From a virus (lineage: Duplodnaviria; Heunggongvirae; Uroviricota; Caudoviricetes): DNA of 44,580 nt. The stretch lies in IMG/VR virus record IMGVR_UViG_2534682161_000019; one strand, written 5' to 3'. Both the position numbers and the translations under genes were made by a program. The stretch's first letter is position 1. Every line of letters starts with the position of its first letter. Shown here one piece after another: positions 1,430 through 32,469 of this stretch. Below the pieces are notes generated by a model. It made no database searches, had not been told where the DNA came from, and saw only the letters and a list, made by a program, of their open reading frames with translations.

Positions 1430-1569
1430 AAGAAAAATAAAGAAAAATCAGTATAATACGCAAAATAGCCGAAAAGTTAATCAGACTTAACACCAAGAAA
1501 AATCAAGATGTTAGGGAGTTATTCAGAGTTAATATACCAGGTCTTTTGCCAGAAAATTTTCTGGATTGT

Positions 1570-2589
1570 CTACTTACTGACCACAAGCGGCAAATCCAGT
1601 GTTGGCGTGATTTTGGTTTTACGATCGTAAATCAACACCTGATTTTCTGTTTTGTGTCCACTGAAAATTTGTTTGTCGCGACTGCTGCCTTCGTAATCTG
1701 AAATTCCTTTGGCTTTTATGTCATGGAAGTTGCACCCAAACGGAACACCGGCTTTTTGCTCGGCTGCACGTTTAGCCTGATTCCACCAGTTGTTCAGCGT
1801 TTTAGCTATGACCTTCCCGCCTTTGGTTGTGTTGATCACATACTCGCATGTGCCGGAAGATACATTTCGGGCTAACTGGATCGCCGTACGTAATCGTGGA
1901 GACCATTCCTTGATTTGTTTGGTGCCGGTCTTGTTTTGCTCAATGTAAATCCCTTTGTCCATAATATCCTGCCATTTCAGCTCGAGCACATCACCGAGCC
2001 TTGCCGCACAGAGATAGGATATCTCCATTGCAATACGTAACTGTGGAATTGCTTCCGCATATATCGCAGCATACTGTTCATCGGTGATGTAAACAGTACG
2101 GGCTTTAAGCGTGAATTTTCTGACTCCTTTGCATGGATTATTTTTCACATACCCACGCTCATATCCCCATCCGTATACGCGACTCAGACTTGCCAGTTCA
2201 TGGTTTGCCTGGGTCTTGCTCTCAAGCCCCCGCTTATCCATGAAAATTCTTACCTGCTCAATTTTTACATTATCAGCAAGCATTTTCCCGAATACCGCCA
2301 GTAATGCCCTTTGATGTTGCCGATAATCTTTTTGGGTTCGGGGGGCCAGTTCTGTAAATGCAGGGGAGTCCATAAACATGTGCCATAATTTAGCTACGGT
2401 CATTATGTCGTGGAGTTTTGCCTTTTCCAGTTCATAATTTTGCCAGACTTTAGCCACGCTGGTTTCCCGCACTCTTCCTAGCTTTATCGTCCTTGTGCTT
2501 CCTTTGGGCTTCCATACGTAACTGTAACCATTCGATCTAACGCGCGGTGGCAGTACATTATCTTTTTTGTCTTTTCTTGGTCTTCCCAT
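1570..2589 (-). CDS. int: tyrosine site-specific integrase (lambda Int family)
   Basis: 339 aa; C-terminal ...FHDIKAKGISDYEGS...FSGHKTENQVLIYDRK resembles the lambda Int catalytic region (GHKSDTMASQYRDDR); adjacent to tRNA fragment; overlaps the xis-like ORF. Confidence 0.9.
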   Translation of the reverse strand: MGRPRKDKKDNVLPPRVRSNGYSYVWKPKGSTRTIKLGRVRETSVAKVWQNYELEKAKLHDIMTVAKLWHMFMDSPAFTELAPRTQKDYRQHQRALLAVFGKMLADNVKIEQVRIFMDKRGLESKTQANHELASLSRVYGWGYERGYVKNNPCKGVRKFTLKARTVYITDEQYAAIYAEAIPQLRIAMEISYLCAARLGDVLELKWQDIMDKGIYIEQNKTGTKQIKEWSPRLRTAIQLARNVSSGTCEYVINTTKGGKVIAKTLNNWWNQAKRAAEQKAGVPFGCNFHDIKAKGISDYEGSSRDKQIFSGHKTENQVLIYDRKTKITPTLDLPLVVSK

Positions 2590-2809
2590 TATTCAGTGCC
2601 TCAAAATCGGGTTCAGCAGAAACCAGTTCAGATACTTTTGACATTGCTGTTAGTCCACGTGGAATATCACAGCGTAGAACTATCGGCTCGTTTTTAGGCC
2701 CGATTAAAAATGGGATGCCGTGCAGTCTTAACTGGTGTTGCTGTCTTGTGTATCGCTTGTATTTCGTGATCTCTTGAATCTCTGCTGGCGATAGAGTTAA
2801 TTCATACAT
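2558..2809 (-). CDS. xis: putative excisionase / small DNA-binding protein
   Basis: 83-aa basic ORF immediately upstream of and overlapping the int start, the canonical xis position; sequence itself not confidently recognised. Confidence 0.5.
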   Translation of the reverse strand: MYELTLSPAEIQEITKYKRYTRQQHQLRLHGIPFLIGPKNEPIVLRCDIPRGLTAMSKVSELVSAEPDFEALNNGKTKKRQKR

Positions 2810-2875
2810 GTGGTCACATGCCTTACAGCATGACCGCCGCCAATATAATTCGGAGGCGGCGATCAGGGTTGAACA

Positions 2876-5359
2876 TTAAAAATCAGCCTGACTCGGGATC
2901 AGTTTTTGTATTGTAGCTGTAACGTATTTTGCCTGGTGACGGGCGTCATCCAGTGCATTGTGGTGCACGCCTTCGAATGGAATAACGGTTCTGGCATCAA
3001 AGTCGATTGTTTTTCCCAGCTCAACGATTGTGCGTACATCGCGATCGTTGTGGTAGCGCCACGGGCAGGGGATGTCCAGACGTTCGTATGAGGTGCGCAA
3101 AATTGCGTTATCGAAAGTTGCACCATTACCCCATACCTGAACGAATTTTTCATCTGAGTATTCGTTGATGAACTCCCGAAACCGCGAAAGGGCATCCTTC
3201 AGTTTTACCTGGTCTGTTAAAATGGCAGCTCTGGCTTCACTGGACTGCTTCAGCCACCATTCGATGGTTCCACCGTCAGGAACAGCCCCTGTATTCATTG
3301 CGTCAGTCAGACTGATAACGATATAAAATACTGGCCCGATTTCCCCTGTTTGTGGGTCGAAGAAAACCGCACCAATAACCACGATGGGCGCATTGGTGTT
3401 GGTTCCCATTGTTTCAAGGTCGATCATCAGGTGGTACCACACTCTGCTGGTGGATGTGATAACGTGATGACCGTTCACCGCAATTAAGGGATCTGCCGTC
3501 TCGCCAGTTTCATTATCGCTGGCGTGGTCCTGAGCGCTGCCAGCATTCTCCTTGTGTGGATGTTCAGCGCCTTCCATTTCCTCCGGATCATTTTCCTGAA
3601 CTTCAACCTGATTCTCTTCATCGAATGTTTCCTGGTATGTTGCGTCGCCCATCACCGCACCACAATCAGGGCAGTTGCCGCCGCCGGTCTGACCGCAGGC
3701 GGTGCAGACTTTTTCCGCTTCCTGTTGCGCTACTGGCTCAGGTTGTTTCGTTTCTGGCTCGTTTTGTAACGCATTTGGGCTGTTTTGTTCCGCGTTCTGG
3801 TCGTTCTGTTCCGTTTCTTGCTGGTTCTGATTCACAGAATCGCGGGTTTCAATCCCCTTCACCCATTTCGGATCATTCGGGTCGCTAATCCCTGCAACAA
3901 ATTCACTACGTGATACAGCAAGCAACTTATCGGCGTCAGGCTGGCTGATATTGGCTGCCTGCATAATTTTGTTTACTTCGTCAGCGGTAACTTTTACCGG
4001 CTCCGGTTGTGCGATCGTGTCAGATGCACCAGTATTTTGTTGTGAACCTGAGTATGTACCGTTTTTGCGGGCAAAATATTCTTCTTTCGTGATTTCAGTA
4101 GCCCCTGCAGCCAGCGCCTTATTCAGACCAGAAAGTTTGTTTGCACGACCGTATTTTTCGCCATCCTTGTCGGTGAAGAGGAAGTAGAACGGCCCCTCAC
4201 GCTCTACAGATGATTCGACTTCCACTTTGCATTCGGTTTTTTCGTTGTCGTGAATTGCCGTTTCCACTGCGTCAGTTTCTGGTACTGGCGACGAGAGAGT
4301 ATTAGCTGTGCCCTGATTTGTTCCTTCGTCATCTTCAAACACGCCCTTTGTAGTCAGGTATTCAGTGATGTATTTGTTCAGTGCCACGGGATCTTTGTGA
4401 ATGTCGATCGGGCGTTCACGGACAAGGCCAAAAATAGTCTGGCGGCTGTAGCGAAGCGCATCAGGTTGTTTGCGCATTGATGCGGAGATGCGCTTCCAGT
4501 CTTCGCGATCTCTGGCGATAACTTCATTTTTAGCCCAGCGAAGGATGCTGCCGTCAATGTTTCCGGCATCCGCATCACCAGGCCAGAGATAGTAGGCCAG
4601 CTCCCTGTCCAGGGTTTTCCATGTCTGCTTGTATTCGCGATGAATGGCGGCAGTTACAGGAGGGATTTTTTCTGCTGGGTTTTCAGTGTGCTGTCGGTTG
4701 GCTTTGGCGCGGGCAAGATCAACAACAGACGTGTATTTTCCAGTCTCTTTGCGCTCTGCGTCCTGCCGTTTTTTCCAGTTACGTAATTCAACCTGAATTT
4801 CGGGCCATTTGGTACCCGGCTTACATTTGTGTTTAACCCATCCGATAGCGAACAGTTTGCGTTCCGGATACATAGCGTTAATTTCAGGCGTTTTCATCAG
4901 TGCTTCAACGATATGCCCGTCAAAGGTAGCCACGTCTTCTTGCAGTAATTCCTGCGCGTCAATCGCCATATCAACGGTGATGTTTTCACATGTACCGAAC
5001 TTAACCAGGACCGCGTTCTGTACTTCAAGGGACAGCTTGTCAAAATTGACGTTAATAGGATCGGATTCTGGTTCGACCGGAATAAAGGAAGCGGATTCCT
5101 CATCCCAGTGGTTTTCCTGCATATATTCGGTATCCCAGGAGTCGATAGCAGGGCGGGGCATGCCGGGTTTATCTTCGCAGACAAGAAATTTATAAGCGCA
5201 GTCCTGAGCAGCAGGATATTGCTCCAGGAATTGCCAGGTAAATTTGGCACGGGCGCGGCGTTCATCACCGGCTTCAATGGCAGTGGCTACAGCAACTGCG
5301 CCCTCTTCTTTTATTGCCTGTTCGTCCGGAATGGCGGCGCAAATAAAGACTTTACTCAT
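2876..5359 (-). CDS. large early-region protein with C-terminal DnaQ-like (DEDDh) 3-prime-5-prime exonuclease domain (type often annotated exodeoxyribonuclease VIII-like in E. coli prophages)
   Basis: 827 aa; C-terminus carries Exo I (MIDLETMGT), Exo II (WGNGATFDNAIL) and Exo III (HHNALDDARH) motifs; Cys4 ribbon CTACGQTGGGNCPDCG; low-complexity Q/N/E-rich linker. Confidence 0.7.
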   Translation of the reverse strand: MSKVFICAAIPDEQAIKEEGAVAVATAIEAGDERRARAKFTWQFLEQYPAAQDCAYKFLVCEDKPGMPRPAIDSWDTEYMQENHWDEESASFIPVEPESDPINVNFDKLSLEVQNAVLVKFGTCENITVDMAIDAQELLQEDVATFDGHIVEALMKTPEINAMYPERKLFAIGWVKHKCKPGTKWPEIQVELRNWKKRQDAERKETGKYTSVVDLARAKANRQHTENPAEKIPPVTAAIHREYKQTWKTLDRELAYYLWPGDADAGNIDGSILRWAKNEVIARDREDWKRISASMRKQPDALRYSRQTIFGLVRERPIDIHKDPVALNKYITEYLTTKGVFEDDEGTNQGTANTLSSPVPETDAVETAIHDNEKTECKVEVESSVEREGPFYFLFTDKDGEKYGRANKLSGLNKALAAGATEITKEEYFARKNGTYSGSQQNTGASDTIAQPEPVKVTADEVNKIMQAANISQPDADKLLAVSRSEFVAGISDPNDPKWVKGIETRDSVNQNQQETEQNDQNAEQNSPNALQNEPETKQPEPVAQQEAEKVCTACGQTGGGNCPDCGAVMGDATYQETFDEENQVEVQENDPEEMEGAEHPHKENAGSAQDHASDNETGETADPLIAVNGHHVITSTSRVWYHLMIDLETMGTNTNAPIVVIGAVFFDPQTGEIGPVFYIVISLTDAMNTGAVPDGGTIEWWLKQSSEARAAILTDQVKLKDALSRFREFINEYSDEKFVQVWGNGATFDNAILRTSYERLDIPCPWRYHNDRDVRTIVELGKTIDFDARTVIPFEGVHHNALDDARHQAKYVTATIQKLIPSQADF

Positions 5360-19260: not shown

Positions 19261-19336
<76 letters not shown>

Positions 19337-19339
19337 TAT

Positions 19340-19414
<75 letters not shown>

Positions 19415-22372: not shown

Positions 22373-22599
22373 TTTTTTCAATGCGTTGTATCGTCGCCGT
22401 ATTTCCGCATTAACAGAGACCGCAGCCCTATGGGGAGACTCCTCTGCGCGAGTGTGCGGGGATAATCAAAAACGATACACACCGGGGTTTACTGCGTTAA
22501 CGGAGCGCGGCGTTGTCCCCTCATAGTCGCCTGGCCGGTGCGATGGTGGAAGAAACCGGAACACATTACAAAATGATAACAATTATCATTTTTCGGGTC

Positions 22600-22700
22600 C
22601 TCCTGGCGGGGTGGGCCTGTACACGGGGCGGGTCGGCGCGGAAAAAAGCGCATTTTTGTGATTTTATCGTCATCATCATCATGTATGTAAACTGTTGTTT
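22600..22700. other. putative cos site (cosN-like cohesive-end region) upstream of the terminase small subunit
   Basis: GGGCGGGTCGGC at 22626-22637 resembles the lambda cohesive end GGGCGGCGACCT; located between Rz and terS as cos is in lambda. Confidence 0.4.
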
Positions 22701-22828
22701 TTAATGTAATTGATACAAAAAAGATGATGGTTGTGGCCAATTTTTGTTCGACATCTTTGTGTGGCGGCATTTCTTTACAAAAAAAACAGAATCACTTCTG
22801 TTCAGAGGGGTATGTGGAGGAGGCGTAG

Positions 22829-23305
22829 ATGGACGGCGAGCTGAAAAATATGAAGTTAAATATTAATCAACTGGCAGCCCTTTCAGGCCTGCACCGGCAG
22901 ACCGTTACCGCAAGAATGGCGGATGTTCCTCTTGCTCCGGGCAGTAATGAGAAGAAAAAACTTTATCTCCTGACGGACCTGATTACTGCGCTGCTGGCAA
23001 AAACACCATCTACCGAAGATGAGGAGATGAATCCACACGATCGCAAGGCATGGTATCAGTCCGAGCGCGAGCGTCTTAAATTTCAGCATGAAACTGTTCA
23101 GCTTGTCCCTGTCAGTGATGTCAGGCGGTCGTTTTCCGTCGTGGTGAAAGCCATTGTGCAGATACTGGAAACCTGGCCTGACAGGCTGGAGAGGGACAGG
23201 GGGTGGACTGCATCACAACTGAACGAAGTGCAGATCGTTGTTGATGAGATCCGTGACACGCTGGAAAAGGCAGTGATTGCCTGCTGTGATGAGGCTGATA
23301 TGTGA
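22829..23305 (+). CDS. terminase small subunit (Nu1-like position, N-terminal HTH)
   Basis: 158 aa; ATG 5 nt after GGAGGAGG; N-terminal LNINQLAALSGLHRQTVTARMADVP; immediately precedes and overlaps the gpA-like terminase. Confidence 0.65.
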   Translation: MDGELKNMKLNINQLAALSGLHRQTVTARMADVPLAPGSNEKKKLYLLTDLITALLAKTPSTEDEEMNPHDRKAWYQSERERLKFQHETVQLVPVSDVRRSFSVVVKAIVQILETWPDRLERDRGWTASQLNEVQIVVDEIRDTLEKAVIACCDEADM

Positions 23306-25425
23306 ATCCGGTTAACGAGTGCCATAGCCGCGCATCCGATATCTGGCGCGAAGTGGCCTCGCTGTTTCGCCCGCCTGGCCGGTTACCAGTAGCGGAAGCC
23401 ATCAGGCGTTATATGCGGGTACCACGGGGAGCCAACACTTCAGGTCCGTGGGAGTCATCGCTGACGCCCTATATGATTGACCCCATTAATACATTATCAG
23501 CCCGTGAATATGACGCGGTGGTGTTTGTCGGACCGGCGCGAACCGGGAAAACCGAAGGGCTGATTGATGGCTGGATTGTGTACGGCATCATCTGTGATCC
23601 GGCGGATATGCTGGTGGTGCAGATGACTGAGACGAAGGCGCGTGAGCATTCCAGAACGCGTCTTTCCAGGACGTTTCGCCACAGTCCGGAGGTCAGTAAG
23701 CGCCTCAGTCCTTCCCGTAATGACAACAACGTCCACGACAAAATGTTTCTTGACGGCTCATTCCTGAAAATTGGCTGGCCGTCGATCACCGTATTTTCCT
23801 CCTCGGATTACCGTCGTGTGGCGCTGACGGATTATGACCGTTTTCCTGAGAACGTCGACGGTGAAGGGGATGCCTTCACGCTGGCATCAAAGCGTACCAC
23901 CACCTTTATGTCCTCGGGGATGACCCTGGTCGAAAGTTCGCCCGGGCGGGATATCACCGATACCAAATGGCGTTGTGGTGGCGCACATGAGGCACCGCCA
24001 ACAACGGGGATCCTGTCACTGTATAACCGGGGAGACCGCCGCCGGTGGTACTGGCCGTGTCCGCACTGCGGGGAATATTTTCAGCCGGTGATGGATAACA
24101 TGACCGGTTACCGGAATAACCCTGATTTTGTGGCTGCCGGGCAGGCGGCCCGCCTGATGTGTCCGCACTGCCGCGGCCTGATTGCTCCGGAACAGAAGCG
24201 TGAACTGAATAACCAGGGGATCTGGCTGCGGGAAGGCGAACGGGCAGCGGCGGATGGCAGTATTACCGGAACCCCTCGAAATTCCAGAATAGCAAGTTTC
24301 TGGATGGAGGGGCCGGCAGCGGCGTTTCAGACCTGGGAACAACTGATTTTTAAGCTGCTGGCGGCAGAAGAAGAGTATGAGCGAACCGGCAGTGAAGAGA
24401 CCCTGAAAGCGGTGGTAAACACCGATATCGGACGACCCTATCTGCCCCGTTCAGCCACGGAACAGCGTAAAAGTGAACTGCTTGAACAGCGTGCCGAGCC
24501 GTTTCCCCGGCGATCTGTGCCGGATGGTGTGCGTTTTATTGAGGCAACGGTTGACGTACAGGGCGGTAAAAATCGCCGTTTTGTTGTGCAGATCACCGGA
24601 TACGGAGAACAGGGGGAACGCTGGATTGTTGATCGCTACAACATCCGGCATTCACTGCGCTGCAGTCCCAATGGTGAAAGTCTGCCGGTTGATCCGGCGG
24701 CATATCCGGAGGACTGGGATTTGTTGCTGACGGATGTGCTCCATAAAACATGGCCGCTGGCTTCTGATCCGGATGTGCGCATGCGTCTGATGGCCATGGC
24801 GGTGGATACGGGAGGGGAAGCCGGGGTGACAGATAATGCCTATCGTTTCTGGCGTCGTTGCCGGAGTGACGGACTGGGCAACAGGGTGTTTCTGTTCAAG
24901 GGGGATGGTCTTCGCCGTGACAGGCTGATTAACCGTACCTTCCCGGATAATACCGGCAGAAGTGCCCGCCGTGCCAGAGCCAGTGGCGATGTCGCGCTGT
25001 GGCTGGTTCAGACGGATGCGTTTAAGGACCGTGTAAATAATGCCCTGTGGCGTGACACACCAGGGCCGAACTATATCCACTTTCCCGACTGGCTGGGGCG
25101 GTGGTTTTACGATGAGCTGACCTATGAAGAGCGCGGCAGTGACGGAAAATGGCGAAAACCGGGCAGGGGCGCTAACGAGGCGTTTGACCTGCTGGTGTAT
25201 GCGGATGCGCTTGCCGTTCTGCATGGTTACGAAAAGATCCGCTGGCCCTCCGCACCGGACTGGGCACAGCGGGAAACGTGGCTCGTTTTTCCGCAGGAGC
25301 GTTCTGGTGAAACGGCATCCCCGGAACTGACGGCCGGGGCAGAAAAACGCCGTCGTCGGAAGAAAAAACTGCGGACGGAGCGTGCGGAAGATAATCCATG
25401 GATAACATCAGGAGGCTGGTTGTGA
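23302..25425 (+). CDS. A: terminase large subunit (lambda gpA family)
   Basis: 707 aa; Walker A VFVGPARTGKTE; paired CPHCG motifs (WYWPCPHCGEYF, LMCPHCRGLI) as in lambda gpA. Confidence 0.9.
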   Translation: MNPVNECHSRASDIWREVASLFRPPGRLPVAEAIRRYMRVPRGANTSGPWESSLTPYMIDPINTLSAREYDAVVFVGPARTGKTEGLIDGWIVYGIICDPADMLVVQMTETKAREHSRTRLSRTFRHSPEVSKRLSPSRNDNNVHDKMFLDGSFLKIGWPSITVFSSSDYRRVALTDYDRFPENVDGEGDAFTLASKRTTTFMSSGMTLVESSPGRDITDTKWRCGGAHEAPPTTGILSLYNRGDRRRWYWPCPHCGEYFQPVMDNMTGYRNNPDFVAAGQAARLMCPHCRGLIAPEQKRELNNQGIWLREGERAAADGSITGTPRNSRIASFWMEGPAAAFQTWEQLIFKLLAAEEEYERTGSEETLKAVVNTDIGRPYLPRSATEQRKSELLEQRAEPFPRRSVPDGVRFIEATVDVQGGKNRRFVVQITGYGEQGERWIVDRYNIRHSLRCSPNGESLPVDPAAYPEDWDLLLTDVLHKTWPLASDPDVRMRLMAMAVDTGGEAGVTDNAYRFWRRCRSDGLGNRVFLFKGDGLRRDRLINRTFPDNTGRSARRARASGDVALWLVQTDAFKDRVNNALWRDTPGPNYIHFPDWLGRWFYDELTYEERGSDGKWRKPGRGANEAFDLLVYADALAVLHGYEKIRWPSAPDWAQRETWLVFPQERSGETASPELTAGAEKRRRRKKKLRTERAEDNPWITSGGWL

Positions 25426-25634
25426 GCACAGAAGAAGCCAGAGAAATGATACAGCGGTACCGTGAAGCGGAAATGGCCGTACTGGAGGGGAAGTCTGTCA
25501 CCTTCAACGGACAGCAACTGACGCTGGAAAGCCTTTCTCAGATCCGCGCCGGACGTCAGGAGTGGGAACGCAGGCTTGCCGCGATGGTGAGCCGCAGGCG
25601 GGGAAAACCGGGATTTAAACTGGCGAGGTTTTAA
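25422..25634 (+). CDS. W: head-tail joining protein gpW-like
   Basis: GTG 6 nt after AGGAGG, overlapping the terminase stop; ~70 aa ending ...RRRGKPGFKLARF (lambda W ends ...RRRGPAGFYV). Confidence 0.7.
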   Translation: MSTEEAREMIQRYREAEMAVLEGKSVTFNGQQLTLESLSQIRAGRQEWERRLAAMVSRRRGKPGFKLARF

Positions 25635-27136
25635 TGGCAATTATTGATGATGTGATAGGCGTGTTCTCTCCAGGCTGGAAAGCGACCAGACTGCGTTCAA
25701 GGGCGTTAATCATGGCCTATGAGGCGGTGAAACCGACCCGGACACATAAAGCCCGGCGTGAAAATCGATCTGCTGATCAACTCAGTAAATATGGCGCGGT
25801 TTCCCTGCGGGAGCAGGCCCGTTTTCTGGATATCAATCATGACCTGGTGATTGGTGTGTTTGACAAGCTTGAAGAGCGGGTGATTGGTGCCAGAGGAATT
25901 ACTGTGGATCCTCAGCCATTACGAAAAAACGGGGAAATGGCGGCAGAGCTGGCTGCGGATATCCGCCGGTTGTGGGCTGAATGGTCCGTGAGTCCCGATG
26001 TGACAGGGCAGTATACCCGTCCCGTGCTTGAGCGTTTACTGCTGCGGACCTGGCTGCGGGATGGTGAAGTGTTTGCGCAGATGGTCAGTGGTGCGGGAAA
26101 CGGTCTGGAACGGACGGCGGGAGTGCCATTCTGGCTTGAAGCGATGGAGCCGGATTTTGTTCCTATGCGCAGTGATGAATCCGCCGGGCTGAATCAGGGG
26201 GTTTTTCTTGATGAGTGGGGCAGACCGAAAAAATATCTGGTTTATAAAAATTATCCGGTCAGTGGTCGGCAGAGTGATACGAAAGAAATCGCCGCCGGAA
26301 AAATGATCCACCTGAAGTTCACTCGTCGTCTGCATCAGACGCGAGGCTCATCCATGTTATCGGGGGTGCTGATGCGGATCAGTGCCCTTAAGGAGTATGA
26401 GGATGCGGAACTGACAGTGGCGCGTATTGCTGCGGCGCTGGGACTGTATATCCGTAAAGGTGACGGACAGGACTATGAAGATCCGGGGAGCAAAGAAACC
26501 GAGCGGGAAGTCCATATCACCCCGGGAATTATTTATGACGATTTGCGCAAGGGCGAGGATATCGGCATGGTCAAATCCGATCGTCCCAATCCCAACCTTG
26601 AAACTTTCCGCAACGGCCAGTTGCGTGCAGTGGCAGCTGGCAGTCGTCTGAGCTTTTCCAGTGCGGCGCGTAACTATAACGGCACCTACAGCGCCCAGCG
26701 GCAGGAGCTGGTCGAGTCCACGGATGGTTACCTGATCCTGCAGGACTGTTTTATTGGTGCGGTAACCCGCCCGGTGTACCGGACATGGCTGAATATGGTG
26801 GTTGCGGCAGGTCTGCTGAAAATTCCGGCGGATGTGGAGATGAAGACGCTATATAACGCGACGTATTCCGGTCCGGTGATGCCGTGGATTGACCCGGTTA
26901 AGGAGGCTGAAGCCTGGCGGATACAGATCCGGGGTGGTGCCGCGACGGAATCCGACTGGATCCGCGCAGGCGGGCGCAACCCGGATGAGGTCAAACGTCG
27001 CCGTAAGGCGGAAACTGAGGAAAACCGCAGGCTGGGGCTGGTCTTTGATACTGACCCCGCCAACGACAAAGGAGGCAACAGTGCCGGAACTGAACAACAG
27101 CGTCAGCAGGCCACCGACAGCCAGCATGAAGAATAA
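25634..27136 (+). CDS. portal protein
   Basis: 500-aa ORF directly after W and before the protease-capsid gene; size and position fit a portal. Confidence 0.75.
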   Translation: MAIIDDVIGVFSPGWKATRLRSRALIMAYEAVKPTRTHKARRENRSADQLSKYGAVSLREQARFLDINHDLVIGVFDKLEERVIGARGITVDPQPLRKNGEMAAELAADIRRLWAEWSVSPDVTGQYTRPVLERLLLRTWLRDGEVFAQMVSGAGNGLERTAGVPFWLEAMEPDFVPMRSDESAGLNQGVFLDEWGRPKKYLVYKNYPVSGRQSDTKEIAAGKMIHLKFTRRLHQTRGSSMLSGVLMRISALKEYEDAELTVARIAAALGLYIRKGDGQDYEDPGSKETEREVHITPGIIYDDLRKGEDIGMVKSDRPNPNLETFRNGQLRAVAAGSRLSFSSAARNYNGTYSAQRQELVESTDGYLILQDCFIGAVTRPVYRTWLNMVVAAGLLKIPADVEMKTLYNATYSGPVMPWIDPVKEAEAWRIQIRGGAATESDWIRAGGRNPDEVKRRRKAETEENRRLGLVFDTDPANDKGGNSAGTEQQRQQATDSQHEE

Positions 27137-29105
27137 ATCCTGGTTCAGGATGCAGGCGGGTGGTCAGGGTGAGGCGGATATTTATATTTATGACGAGATT
27201 GGTTTCTGGGGCGTCACCGCGAAGCAGTTTGTCAGCGATATGAATGCCCTGGGTGATATCACCCACATTAATCTCCACATCAACTCACCGGGTGGCGATG
27301 TCTTTGAAGGCATCGCCATTTTTAATGCCCTGAAAAATCACGGTGCGGCCATTACCGTGTATGTGGATGGCGTTGCCGCCTCGATGGCATCCCTGATTGC
27401 GATGGCCGGTGACACGGTCATTATGCCGGAAAATGCCTTCATGATGATCCATAAACCCTGGGGGATCAGCGGTGGTGATGCGGAGAAAATGCGCACTTAT
27501 GCCGAACGTCTGGACAAACTTGAGTCGGTTATGGTGCCGGTATATGCGCAGAAAACCGGAAAAACTACCGATGAAATTGCCGCCATGCTGGCGGATGAGA
27601 CCTGGATGTCCGGTGCCGAGTGTCTGGCACACGGATTTGCTGACCAGGTGACGCCAGCCGTTAAGGCAATGGCATGTATTCAGTCAACACGTACAGAGGA
27701 ATTTAAAAAGATGCCGGAATCCATCCGAAATATGATCACGCAGCCACACAACAGTGCCCCGCGTGATACCACAGTGACAATCCCTGCACCGGCGGTAACA
27801 GAACCATCACCGGTACCGGCAGTGTCTGATGAGGCGACCATTCGCGCCCGCGTTATGGCTGAGCAGAAAGCCCGCATGTCAGGCATTAACGATCTGTTTG
27901 CCATGTTTGGCGGGCGCTATCAGGCGCTTCAGGCGCAGTGTGTGGCCGATCCTGACTGTTCGCTGGAAATGGCCCGCGAGCGCCTTCTGAATGAAATGGG
28001 CAAGGAGTCCTCGCCGACCAACAAAAACACACCGGCCCATATTTATGCCGGAAACGGCAATTTTGTGGGAGACGGGATCCGCCAGGCGATGCTGGCCCGT
28101 GCCGGATATGAAAATGTCGAGAAGGATAATGTCTATAACGGGATGACCCTGCGTGAATGGGCTCGCATGTCACTGACCGAGCGTGGTATTGGGGTGGCCA
28201 GTTATAACCCCATGCAGATGGTCGGGCTGGCGCTGACGCACAGCACCTCTGATTTTGGCAATATTCTGCTGGATGTGTCGAACAAGGGGCTGATCCAGGG
28301 CTGGGAGGAATCAGAAGAAACCTTCCAGAAGTGGACCCGTAAGGGACGCCTGTCAGACTTCAAAACAGCGTATCGCGTGGGGATGGGCGGTTTTGGTTCT
28401 CTGCGTCAGGTTCGTGAAGGGGCGGAGTATAAATACATCACCACCTCAGATCGCAAGGAGACCATTGCTCTGGCCACTTACGGGGAGATTTTCTCCATCA
28501 CCCGCCAGGCCATTATCAATGATGACCTGAATATGCTGGTTGACGTGCCGATGAAGATGGGGCGTGCGGCGAAGGCAACGATTGGTGACCTGGTTTACAA
28601 GGTGCTGACGGATAACCCGAAACTGTCAGACGGTAAGGCGCTGTTCCATGCCGATCACAAAAATATTGCCACCGGCGGGATCTCCGTTTCCGGGCTGGAT
28701 GCGGCCCGTCAGATGATGCGCCTGCAGAAAGAAGGCGATCGCGCCCTGAATATCCGTCCGGCCTTTATGCTGGTGCCGGTGTCACTGGAGACGGTGGCGA
28801 ACCAGACCATCAAATCGGCCAGTGTGAAAGGGGCGGATGCAAACGCCGGTGTCATTAACCCGATCCAGAACTTTGCCGAAGTAATTGCGGAAGCGCGTCT
28901 TGATGCGGCAGATCCGAAAACCTGGTACCTGGCTGCGGCACAGGGCACCGACACCATTGAAGTGGCCTGGCTCGATGGTGTGGACACCCCCTACATTGAC
29001 CAGCAGGAAGGTTTCACCACTGACGGTATCGCCACAAAAATCCGTATTGATGCCGGTGTGGCACCACTTGACTGGCGCGGGCTGGTGCGTTCGTCGGTGG
29101 CCTGA
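27081..29105 (+). CDS. fused prohead protease (ClpP-like) - scaffold - major capsid protein (Gifsy-2-type head gene)
   Basis: GTG at 27081 5 nt after AAAGGAGG; N-terminal ClpP-like domain (...HINLHINSPGGDVFEGIAIFNALKNH...VDGVAASMASLIAMAGD...MMIHKPW...), central linker, C-terminal ~300 aa resembling an HK97-fold capsid protein. Confidence 0.75.
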   Translation: MPELNNSVSRPPTASMKNKSWFRMQAGGQGEADIYIYDEIGFWGVTAKQFVSDMNALGDITHINLHINSPGGDVFEGIAIFNALKNHGAAITVYVDGVAASMASLIAMAGDTVIMPENAFMMIHKPWGISGGDAEKMRTYAERLDKLESVMVPVYAQKTGKTTDEIAAMLADETWMSGAECLAHGFADQVTPAVKAMACIQSTRTEEFKKMPESIRNMITQPHNSAPRDTTVTIPAPAVTEPSPVPAVSDEATIRARVMAEQKARMSGINDLFAMFGGRYQALQAQCVADPDCSLEMARERLLNEMGKESSPTNKNTPAHIYAGNGNFVGDGIRQAMLARAGYENVEKDNVYNGMTLREWARMSLTERGIGVASYNPMQMVGLALTHSTSDFGNILLDVSNKGLIQGWEESEETFQKWTRKGRLSDFKTAYRVGMGGFGSLRQVREGAEYKYITTSDRKETIALATYGEIFSITRQAIINDDLNMLVDVPMKMGRAAKATIGDLVYKVLTDNPKLSDGKALFHADHKNIATGGISVSGLDAARQMMRLQKEGDRALNIRPAFMLVPVSLETVANQTIKSASVKGADANAGVINPIQNFAEVIAEARLDAADPKTWYLAAAQGTDTIEVAWLDGVDTPYIDQQEGFTTDGIATKIRIDAGVAPLDWRGLVRSSVA

Positions 29106-29127: not shown

Positions 29128-29146
29128 GCCCGAAAGGGCTTTTTTT
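29128..29146 (+). terminator. short terminator-like hairpin after the capsid gene
   Basis: GCCC-GAAA-GGGC followed by TTTTTTT; short stem, so weak. Confidence 0.3.
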
Positions 29147-29191: not shown

Positions 29192-29518
29192 ATGGCTAAA
29201 AATTTTGTACAGGACGGCACCACCATTGAGCTGGTGAATGCCGGGGATCAGACCATTCTGAGCGGTGCCGCTGTGGTGGTTGGCAGCATGGTGGCAGTGA
29301 CCATTACCGATATTCCTGCCGGGAAGACTGGTGACGGGTTCGCCGAAGGCGTGTTCCTGCTGCCCAAACAGTCTGCCGACGATATTCAGGCCGGTGTGGC
29401 GGTTTATCTGAAGGACGGGACTGTGCAGCCTGCCGCAGACGGTGCAGTGGCGGCGGGAATGGCATGGGAGCATGCGCCGTCAGGCACCACCACGGTGGCG
29501 GTTAAAATCAATGCCTGA
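29192..29518 (+). CDS. putative head decoration / small head structural protein
   Basis: 108 aa directly after the capsid gene (lambda D-like position and size); Gly/Ala/Val-rich. Confidence 0.4.
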   Translation: MAKNFVQDGTTIELVNAGDQTILSGAAVVVGSMVAVTITDIPAGKTGDGFAEGVFLLPKQSADDIQAGVAVYLKDGTVQPAADGAVAAGMAWEHAPSGTTTVAVKINA

Positions 29519-31606: not shown

Positions 31607-32038
31607 ATGTTTCTGAAAACAGAACAATTTGAATATAACGGCGTGTCCGTCACCCTTTCCGAACTGTCTGCGCTGCAGCGTATTGAGCATCTTGCCCTCC
31701 TGAAACGGCGGGCAGAAGAGGCTGAAGCCAGCGGCAACCTGCAGGTGAGCGTGGAAGACATTGTCAGAACCGGGGCGTTTCTGGTGGCGATGTCCCTGTG
31801 GCATAACCATCCACAGAAAACGGAGTCACCGTCAATGAATGAGGCTGTGATGCAGATTGAGCAGGAAGTCCTGACCACCTGGCCTGCTGATGCCATTGCC
31901 CGGGCGGAAGACGTGGTGTTGCGTCTGTCCGGGATGAGTGAGCCTGTTCATGTGGATACGGATATCACCGAAGTGGCGAAAAATAATGCGCTTACTGATG
32001 ATGATTTTTCTGCGGGAAAGTCTTCGACGGCGAGCTGA
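31607..32038 (+). CDS. G: tail assembly chaperone G (lambda gpG)
   Basis: 143 aa MFLKTEQFEYNGVSVTLSELSALQRIEHLALLKRRAEEAEA..., closely matching lambda G. Confidence 0.9.
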   Translation: MFLKTEQFEYNGVSVTLSELSALQRIEHLALLKRRAEEAEASGNLQVSVEDIVRTGAFLVAMSLWHNHPQKTESPSMNEAVMQIEQEVLTTWPADAIARAEDVVLRLSGMSEPVHVDTDITEVAKNNALTDDDFSAGKSSTAS

Positions 32039-32469
32039 ATTTTGCCCTCAGACTGGCGCGTGAGATGGGGAGGCCTGACTGGCGCACCATGCTTGCCGGG
32101 ATGACATCCACCGAATATGCCGACTGGCACCGTTTTTACCGCACGCATTATTTTCAGGATACCCAGCTGGATATGCATTTTTCCGGGCTGATGTACGCCG
32201 TACTCAGCCTGTTTTTTTGCGATCCGGATATGCATCCGGCGGATTTCAGTCTGCTTGCACCCCGACGTGATGATGAGCAGACGGAGATGCCGGATGAGGA
32301 CGATATGCTGATGCGGAAAGCGGCAGGACTTTCTGGTGGTGTCCGCTTTGGGGCTGACGGGAAGGAAATCGTTACGGTCAGTGATGACATGCGGAGCAGT
32401 ACAGAGGATGAAGCCATGCTGATGATGGTGTCTGAGGGAATTCCAGGAGGTGTACGCTATGGCGGGTAA
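31607..32469 (+). CDS. GT: tail assembly chaperone G-T fusion made by programmed -1 ribosomal frameshift
   Basis: Slippery heptamer GGGAAAG at 32014-32020 in the G frame, as in lambda; the -1 frame continues into the T-like ORF (...DWRTMLAGMTSTEYADWHRFYRTHYFQD...), which matches lambda gpT. Confidence 0.8.

Follow-up and report, generated by a model that had tools for sequence, protein, structure and literature searches.

A probable Gifsy-2-type protease-scaffold-capsid gene with a candidate internal start in an Escherichia coli lambdoid prophage

Three publications describe the head of phage Gifsy-2: its genes for the prohead protease and the coat protein are fused (PMC12315714), a cement protein sits as trimers on the 3-fold axes (PMC8538268), and the capsid has T=7 geometry (PMC8814770). 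In Pseudomonas phage MD8, gp5 likewise contains protease, scaffold and capsid protein in one gene, and HHpred mapping relates it to lambda gpC, a Nu3-like scaffold and the capsid proteins of HK97 and Mu (PMC8508860). The gene analysed here lies at positions 27081-29105, including the stop codon, on the plus strand of a 44,580-nucleotide (nt) stretch of virus DNA (IMGVR_UViG_2534682161_000019). This stretch, hereafter the window, is as a whole an Escherichia coli lambdoid prophage, and all positions are given in its coordinates. The gene encodes a protein of 674 amino acids and 73.3 kDa and is, with high confidence, a Gifsy-2-type tripartite head gene that combines protease, scaffold and major capsid protein. 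Three-part head genes of this kind are already known and very common. Comparisons between related sequences suggest two additions to this picture, namely support for a GTG start and a candidate internal start at codon 211.

The Gifsy-2 gene (NC_010393, STM1034.3n, 22471-24561) possesses the same three parts and the same start position, and its product is 60% identical to the window protein over the full length. The window protein is shorter by 22 amino acids, and indels separate the two in the N-terminal tail and in both linkers. The neighbouring genes are also alike, with the portal gene upstream and genes for the decoration protein and the FII, Z, U, V, G, T and H tail proteins downstream. 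The original prediction, which was made from the sequence of the window alone, had pointed to a fused arrangement in Gifsy-2-type heads, and the full-length identity to the Gifsy-2 gene and the presence of all three parts in one open reading frame (ORF) agree with it. The protein scores 994.5 bits over residues 32-672 against NF045540, the NCBIfam model of ClpP-like prohead protease/major capsid protein fusions (cut-off 475), and exhibits a full-length match of 1141.9 bits to phrog_133 in PHROGs. Against NF045541 (scaf_prot_MCP2, fusion type 2) it scores 416.6 bits, below the cut-off of 525, in a match confined to the scaffold-capsid part (residues 215-671), and therefore the protein is not a member of this second family.

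Of 5426 complete E. coli genomes, 2064 carry relatives of the gene, with at least 80% query coverage in 1904 of them, and full-length relatives are found in the orders Enterobacterales and Pasteurellales and in Shewanella and Pseudomonas. Among the 150 best representatives of clusters made at 50% identity, which reach down to 36% identity, most are full length, and the gene is also carried by phages that have been isolated, mEp460, LLS, Ayreon and cdtI among them. The gene is thus correctly recognised but ordinary, given that the Gifsy-2 fusion has been published, that the fusion has its own curated NCBI model and that more than a third of complete E. coli genomes carry a relative. The finding of the head gene is in itself of little import, as the arrangement has been known since Gifsy-2 in 2010 and is common in E. 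coli prophages.

The reading frame is open from 26880 to the stop codon at 29103-29105, and from the GTG at 27081 it comprises 674 codons plus the stop. The Shine-Dalgarno (SD) sequence AAGGAGG (27069-27075, plus strand), recognised by sequence reading, duplex energy and conservation, lies 5 nt before this GTG; its duplex with the anti-SD sequence has an energy of -11.6 kcal/mol, and the gene alignment reveals its conservation in enterobacterial relatives. The RefSeq start, assigned by the Prokaryotic Genome Annotation Pipeline (PGAP) to a 99.6%-identical copy of the gene, is the ATG equivalent to 27126, which is 15 codons short of the SD-plus-GTG start. The start-codon columns were compared across 70 aligned full-length genes, which represent four orders of Gammaproteobacteria. 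The column of the window GTG holds GTG or ATG in 63 of 66 relatives, 49 of which have an SD core, whereas the column of 27126 holds ATG in only 1 of 65. The annotated start of Gifsy-2 (MPEV...) aligns with GTG 27081, and the start of BR133a does likewise. A third candidate, the ATG of Met24, is the start chosen in the mEp460 record; its column holds ATG in 41 of 70 genes and lacks an SD sequence.

Because a start codon is kept in 63 of 66 relatives at the one position and in 1 of 65 at the other, and because the Gifsy-2 start aligns with the former, GTG 27081 is the best supported start, ahead of the RefSeq ATG at 27126. This agrees with the initial description of one uninterrupted ORF with a strong ribosome-binding site and a GTG start, and the evidence in favour of GTG 27081 is of practical value for annotation. 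Across databases, the annotated start of this gene family is inconsistent, being the GTG, the 27126-type ATG or the Met24 ATG.

The two ends of the protein are assigned by family models. A ClpP-related head-maturation protease domain occupies residues 32-190 (27174-27650, plus strand), over which NCBIfam NF045542 (Clp_rel_HeadMat) scores 220.8 bits against a cut-off of 120, and Pfam CLP_protease matches residues 45-191 (E 1.5e-36). The ClpP-like character proposed for the N-terminal ~180 amino acids was therefore recovered by the domain searches. The domain is read as a serine protease with Ser101, His124 and Glu173 as its candidate catalytic residues. The major capsid protein domain spans residues 384-671 (28230-29093, plus strand) and is related to the Mu gpT/HK97-fold family, on the evidence of Pfam Phage_capsid_4 (PF25209; E 9.7e-56, 190.4 bits against a cut-off of 27) and a weaker match to Mu-like_gpT (39.8 bits). 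A profile of the C-terminal 355 residues, built from seven diverse phages, matches the solved capsid chains 8rkc/8rkx, a Mu GpT domain protein (E 7.8e-12), and further matches 9jod (E 8.7e-9). At the level of sequence family, these matches bear out the capsid protein that had been proposed in the C-terminal ~300 residues.

The middle part, residues 193-384, matches no Pfam family. It possesses four sections: a conserved MPxSIRNM motif, a linker at residues 220-250, a three-helix unit at residues 251-309 and a second linker at residues 308-320. The first linker (27738-27830, plus strand) is variable and rich in Pro, Thr and Ala, with no alignment consensus and low model confidence. The three-helix domain (27831-28007, plus strand), delimited by a structure model and by conservation, is the scaffold candidate; its helices (residues 251-274, 281-289 and 295-309) have predicted local distance difference test (pLDDT) values of 70-82 and are the sole confidently modelled part of the protein in AlphaFold. 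The middle part had been described as a central linker, a view that holds insofar as variable linkers are present but fails for a single linker, as a conserved helical domain of ~60 amino acids sits between two variable ones. A profile of 16 relatives aligns weakly over residues 65-310 with lambda gpC 122-396, including the Nu3 part (E 5.2e-5, probability 67%), which is consistent with a scaffold-like middle part that is distantly related to lambda Nu3. The stretch that precedes the capsid-family domain (residues 320-383; 28038-28229, plus strand) is conserved and may belong to the capsid protein, as its N-arm, or else form the end of the scaffold, with a putative boundary between the two; the solved JBD30 capsid protein begins at the equivalent of residue ~384. 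No second protease, scaffold or capsid gene was found in the head region between the portal and tail genes. The absence of separate genes noted at the outset therefore stands, and a check for a missed capsid gene turned up none.

By analogy with Gifsy-2, HK97 and lambda, copies of the 674-amino-acid protein would assemble together on the portal to form a T=7 procapsid that encloses the protease and scaffold parts, and the tethered protease would then cut off everything N-terminal to the capsid domain. The fragments would leave, the shell would expand during DNA packaging, and trimers of the cement protein encoded at 29192-29518 would bind and stabilise it. The maturation cleavage site is probably somewhere in residues 310-384, and a cut in this interval would give a mature protein with a computed mass of 31.6-38.7 kDa.

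Several points weigh against this account of the gene and its product. The AlphaFold models of the full-length protein (43 sequences supplied) and of residues 211-674 (41 sequences) have mean pLDDT values of only 36 and 38, respectively; the protease and capsid domains failed, the latter lying below 50 in both models. These low values are likely a consequence of the homologues supplied, which are all at least 61% identical, and the assignment of the HK97 fold therefore draws on sequence-family evidence. The scaffold role is suggested by a weak profile match, with its probability of 67%, in combination with the absence of any other scaffold gene, and the position of the cleavage site is a probable one, placed by inference within its interval. 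The prophage may not be inducible. Lastly, a strict 1:1 ratio of protease to capsid protein would be unusual.

This last point bears on the rival explanation that survives best, an extension of the reading above in which one gene gives two products: the full-length protein and a protease-less scaffold-capsid protein initiated at Met211, with the ratio of the two starts setting the number of protease copies per procapsid. The chance that this is so is judged to be a little below even. At 27696-27713 on the plus strand, a comparatively defined feature combines GAGGA (27696-27700), as a candidate internal ribosome-binding site, with the in-frame ATG of Met211 (27711-27713). Met211 is located ~20 amino acids after the protease domain, and the predicted product, residues 211-674, would have 464 amino acids and a mass of 50.5 kDa.

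Among the full-length relatives, which extend to ~50% identity, the ATG is present in 70 of 70 genes and an AGGA core is found exactly 10 nt upstream in all 70. The codon that holds the "AG" of this core encodes Glu, Lys, Gln or Gly, and yet the nucleotides are kept. Among 610 codon columns, this one is the best conserved in its third position (G in 69 of 70), and the G is kept even in Pasteurellaceae, where only 14-28% of Glu, Lys and Gln codons end in G. Of 11 conserved start-capable columns, only codons 1 and 211 have an SD core upstream. In 137 distant representatives, by comparison, residue 211 is seldom Met, its place being taken by Ala, Val, Ile, Pro, Thr or Leu, while Pro212 is conserved. 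Because residue 211 varies in these distant relatives, the protein itself needs no Met at this position.

In viral contigs, the SD core accompanies an ATG in 21 of 21 unique contexts but a non-start codon in only 1 of 11 (Fisher p = 1.7e-7). However, these sequences are phylogenetically related, so that the co-occurrence really amounts to one origin; the ATG and SD core probably arose together in a single event and were then maintained. Gene callers choose this same ATG where the 5' part of the gene is missing or frameshifted, and two U35-annotated fusions to the same capsid family also possess a Met with an SD-like motif at the end of the N-terminal domain. Lambda offers a precedent for the idea, as its Nu3 is translated from a start codon inside C, in the same frame. 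The predicted 211-674 product would also have the same layout as HK97 gp5, which consists of the delta domain and the capsid protein, with ~110 amino acids of scaffold followed by the capsid protein.

On the other side, the support for initiation at Met211 is comparative rather than direct, and the SD core in the window is weak (-6 kcal/mol). The SD-like motif could instead be a translational pause, and the Met-Pro pair could be a processing or docking motif. Sliding-window entropy of third positions was uninformative for Met211, as it is dominated by the Met-rich catalytic region. Positional equivalence of Met211 with the start of lambda Nu3 was considered and rejected, as the Nu3 start aligns at residue ~150 in the profile alignment. 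P0278 and P0229, two proteins whose first residues are exactly this Met-Pro, were considered as natural split genes and were likewise rejected for want of evidence of a natural split, one being encoded on a 1.5-kb contig fragment and the other after a frameshift in a degraded prophage.

The internal start at Met211 is unmentioned in the literature found; the primary Gifsy-2 paper lies outside that scope and may already settle the products. The primary description of the Gifsy-2 head is reportedly that of Effantin et al. 2010 (Virology 402:355), known here via the papers that cite it. It is tentatively proposed, from the sequence comparisons, that the tripartite gene of the gammaproteobacterial subfamily is a nested gene pair in which translation sets the dose of protease per procapsid. 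If true, the internal start would explain how the packing of ~415 protease domains into each procapsid is avoided, and would extend the nested-gene logic of lambda C/Nu3 to a three-part gene.

Another rival holds that the gene is intact in sequence but sits in a defective prophage and has no role in head building in this strain. Many E. coli lambdoid prophages are defective, and the copy in VT1-Sakai is interrupted by IS629. However, the head and tail genes examined in the window, from the small terminase to L, are all intact and in canonical order, and the gene is 97-99% identical to the copies in Stx-converting and CP-1639 phages, so that a defective prophage is considered unlikely.

A further rival would make the N-terminal domain a cellular-type ClpP subunit that acts with ClpX or ClpA in ATP-dependent proteolysis, and not a head-maturation protease. 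The domain clearly resembles ClpP (E 4e-17 against solved structures), and alignments to these structures place Ser101 (27381-27383), in GVAASMAS, and His124 (27450-27452), in MMIHKP, on the catalytic Ser and His. The same alignments place Glu173 (27597-27599) at the position of the catalytic Asp. These three candidate catalytic residues, all encoded on the plus strand, are well conserved, the triad columns of 138 sequences holding Ser in 136, His in 136, and Glu in 114 or Asp in 17. The Ser-His-Asp triad of cellular ClpP is thus represented by its Ser and His, with Glu173 at the third position. The domain scores only 64.5 bits against TIGR00493, the equivalog model of cellular ClpP (MEROPS S14; cut-off 308.6), and is far below the cut-offs of every cellular ClpP equivalog among the NCBIfam models, whereas the head-maturation model NF045542 is above its cut-off. 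In addition, the domain is linked covalently to a capsid protein, and its place in the gene order is that of a prohead protease. A cellular-type ClpP subunit is accordingly very improbable, and the domain is retained as a head-maturation protease.

The weakest rival, that the long ORF is an artefact in which a sequencing error or a recent frameshift has fused separate protease, scaffold and capsid genes, has a negligible chance and is refuted by conservation, as the same uninterrupted architecture extends over at least 80% of the query in the 1904 complete E. coli genomes, in the 70 full-length genes of four gammaproteobacterial orders, in isolated phages and in most cluster representatives, and nothing was found in its favour, although sporadic 1-nt errors do occur here in draft assemblies.

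Errors of this sort bear on ~10 proteins of 1158-1159 amino acids that appear to combine portal, protease, scaffold and capsid in one ORF, for which a genuine four-part fusion was rejected. The one example analysed lacks a single G two codons downstream of the GTG start, within the overlap of the portal and head genes (27081-27136), and any -1 indel in this doubly open overlap gives the same length of 1158-1159 amino acids. None of the 5426 complete E. coli genomes contains this exact G-deleted sequence, and the portal-capsid fusions therefore look like sporadic errors or mutations and not like a lineage.

The head gene is preceded, in the 5' direction of its own strand, by genes for a DUF1441 small terminase, a GpA-type large terminase, a small head-tail adaptor and a portal protein of the lambda family. 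The portal gene (25634-27136, plus strand; Pfam Phage_portal_2 E 9.6e-80, phrog_21) overlaps the start of the fusion gene with its last 56 nt. On the 3' side, the gene for the head decoration (cement) protein (29192-29518, plus strand) encodes 108 amino acids and matches Pfam Phage_cement_2 (E 6.3e-19) and phrog_122. The cement protein is 51% identical to the product of the neighbouring gene in Gifsy-2 and has no sequence match among solved structures. It is followed by a gene for an FII-like protein and then by homologues of Z, U, V, G, T, H, M and L.

The original prediction had called the terminase lambda-type, which is true of the large subunit. The small terminase, encoded at 22829-23305, is a DUF1441 protein and not of the lambda Nu1 type, so that the packaging module resembles that of lambda only in part. 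The combination of a fused head gene with a lambda-type terminase and tail had also been regarded as noteworthy, an assessment that is not upheld, as Gifsy-2, mEp460, cdtI and the CP-1639/Stx-type phages exhibit the same gene order. A lambda-type large terminase, portal and tail are the usual context of a Gifsy-2-type head.

Between the head and decoration genes, reading of the sequence reveals a small hairpin, GCCC-GAAA-GGGC, followed by seven T (29128-29146, plus strand). It has a 4-bp stem and a GNRA loop, and the mEp460 record marks a rho-independent terminator at the corresponding site. In the terminator scan this hairpin went unflagged, its stem being too short for that scan. The hairpin is situated inside what should be a Q-antiterminated late operon. 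Among the tail genes, a slippery heptamer of the lambda type, G GGA AAG, is present in the zero frame at 32014-32020, near the end of the G homologue (31607-32038), and the T homologue (32065-32469) is in the -1 frame, which fits the conserved G/GT frameshift of tail chaperones. Upstream of the lysis and packaging genes, tRNA-Thr(TGT) and tRNA-Gly(TCC) lie adjacent to each other at 19261-19414, and the same pair is present in the related prophage of strain 06-00048.

Among named phages, the gene is closest to those of CP-1639, the Stx2a- and Stx2d-converting phages and VT1-Sakai, which exhibit 95-99% nucleotide identity over the whole gene and the same context. The VT1-Sakai copy (AP000400.1, 23239-26576) is the one split by IS629, an insertion that would inactivate protease, scaffold and capsid together. 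The mEp460 group (cdtI, Ayreon, LLS) exhibits ~77% nucleotide identity over the whole gene, again in the same context. In the Pseudomonas MD8/F10/BR133a group, the BR133a protein is 57% identical to the window protein over the full length, but these phages have a different host and their proteins a longer N-terminal tail. The order of portal, fusion gene and decoration gene, without a separate capsid gene, is common to Gifsy-2, mEp460 and BR133a. In the protease domain, residue 172 is Lys in Gifsy-2 and Asp in the window, whereas Glu173 is common to both.

Genes of this family often carry only the label "Clp protease" or "protease/scaffold", which conceals the capsid gene when capsids are surveyed automatically. 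One such survey, in the part that concerns Gifsy-2, failed to obtain an HK97-fold capsid protein for this phage. Annotations of "capsid and protease fusion" are also common in papers on actinophages of Arthrobacter and Microbacterium, and these fusions are considered here together with those of NF045541 (scaf_prot_MCP2).

The locus resembles lambda C/Nu3/D/E in that the portal is followed by a protease with an in-frame scaffold, and in that a decoration protein is present. It differs in that lambda encodes its capsid protein E in a separate gene, whereas the capsid domain of the window is fused and has no detectable similarity to gpE (hhalign E 0.47, probability 0.1%), in keeping with the contrast to lambda that had been drawn at the outset. 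The lambda decoration gene also precedes the capsid gene, whereas that of the window comes after it, and the protease of the window fits ClpP/S14 rather than S49, unlike that of lambda. HK97 gp4/gp5 is similar in having a scaffold function N-terminal to an HK97-fold capsid protein, from which it is removed by the head protease. In HK97, however, the protease is the product of a separate gene and belongs to another family, and the head has covalent cross-links and no decoration protein. Alteromonas phage JH01 and Shewanella phage 1/44 possess fusion genes (1478-3511 and 1493-3559, respectively) in which the same capsid family is C-terminal and is accompanied by a Pro/Ala-rich linker and a downstream decoration gene. 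Their N-terminal domain differs from that of the window, being annotated as peptidase U35 and having no Pfam ClpP match, and therefore the fusion of protease and capsid protein seems to have arisen more than once.

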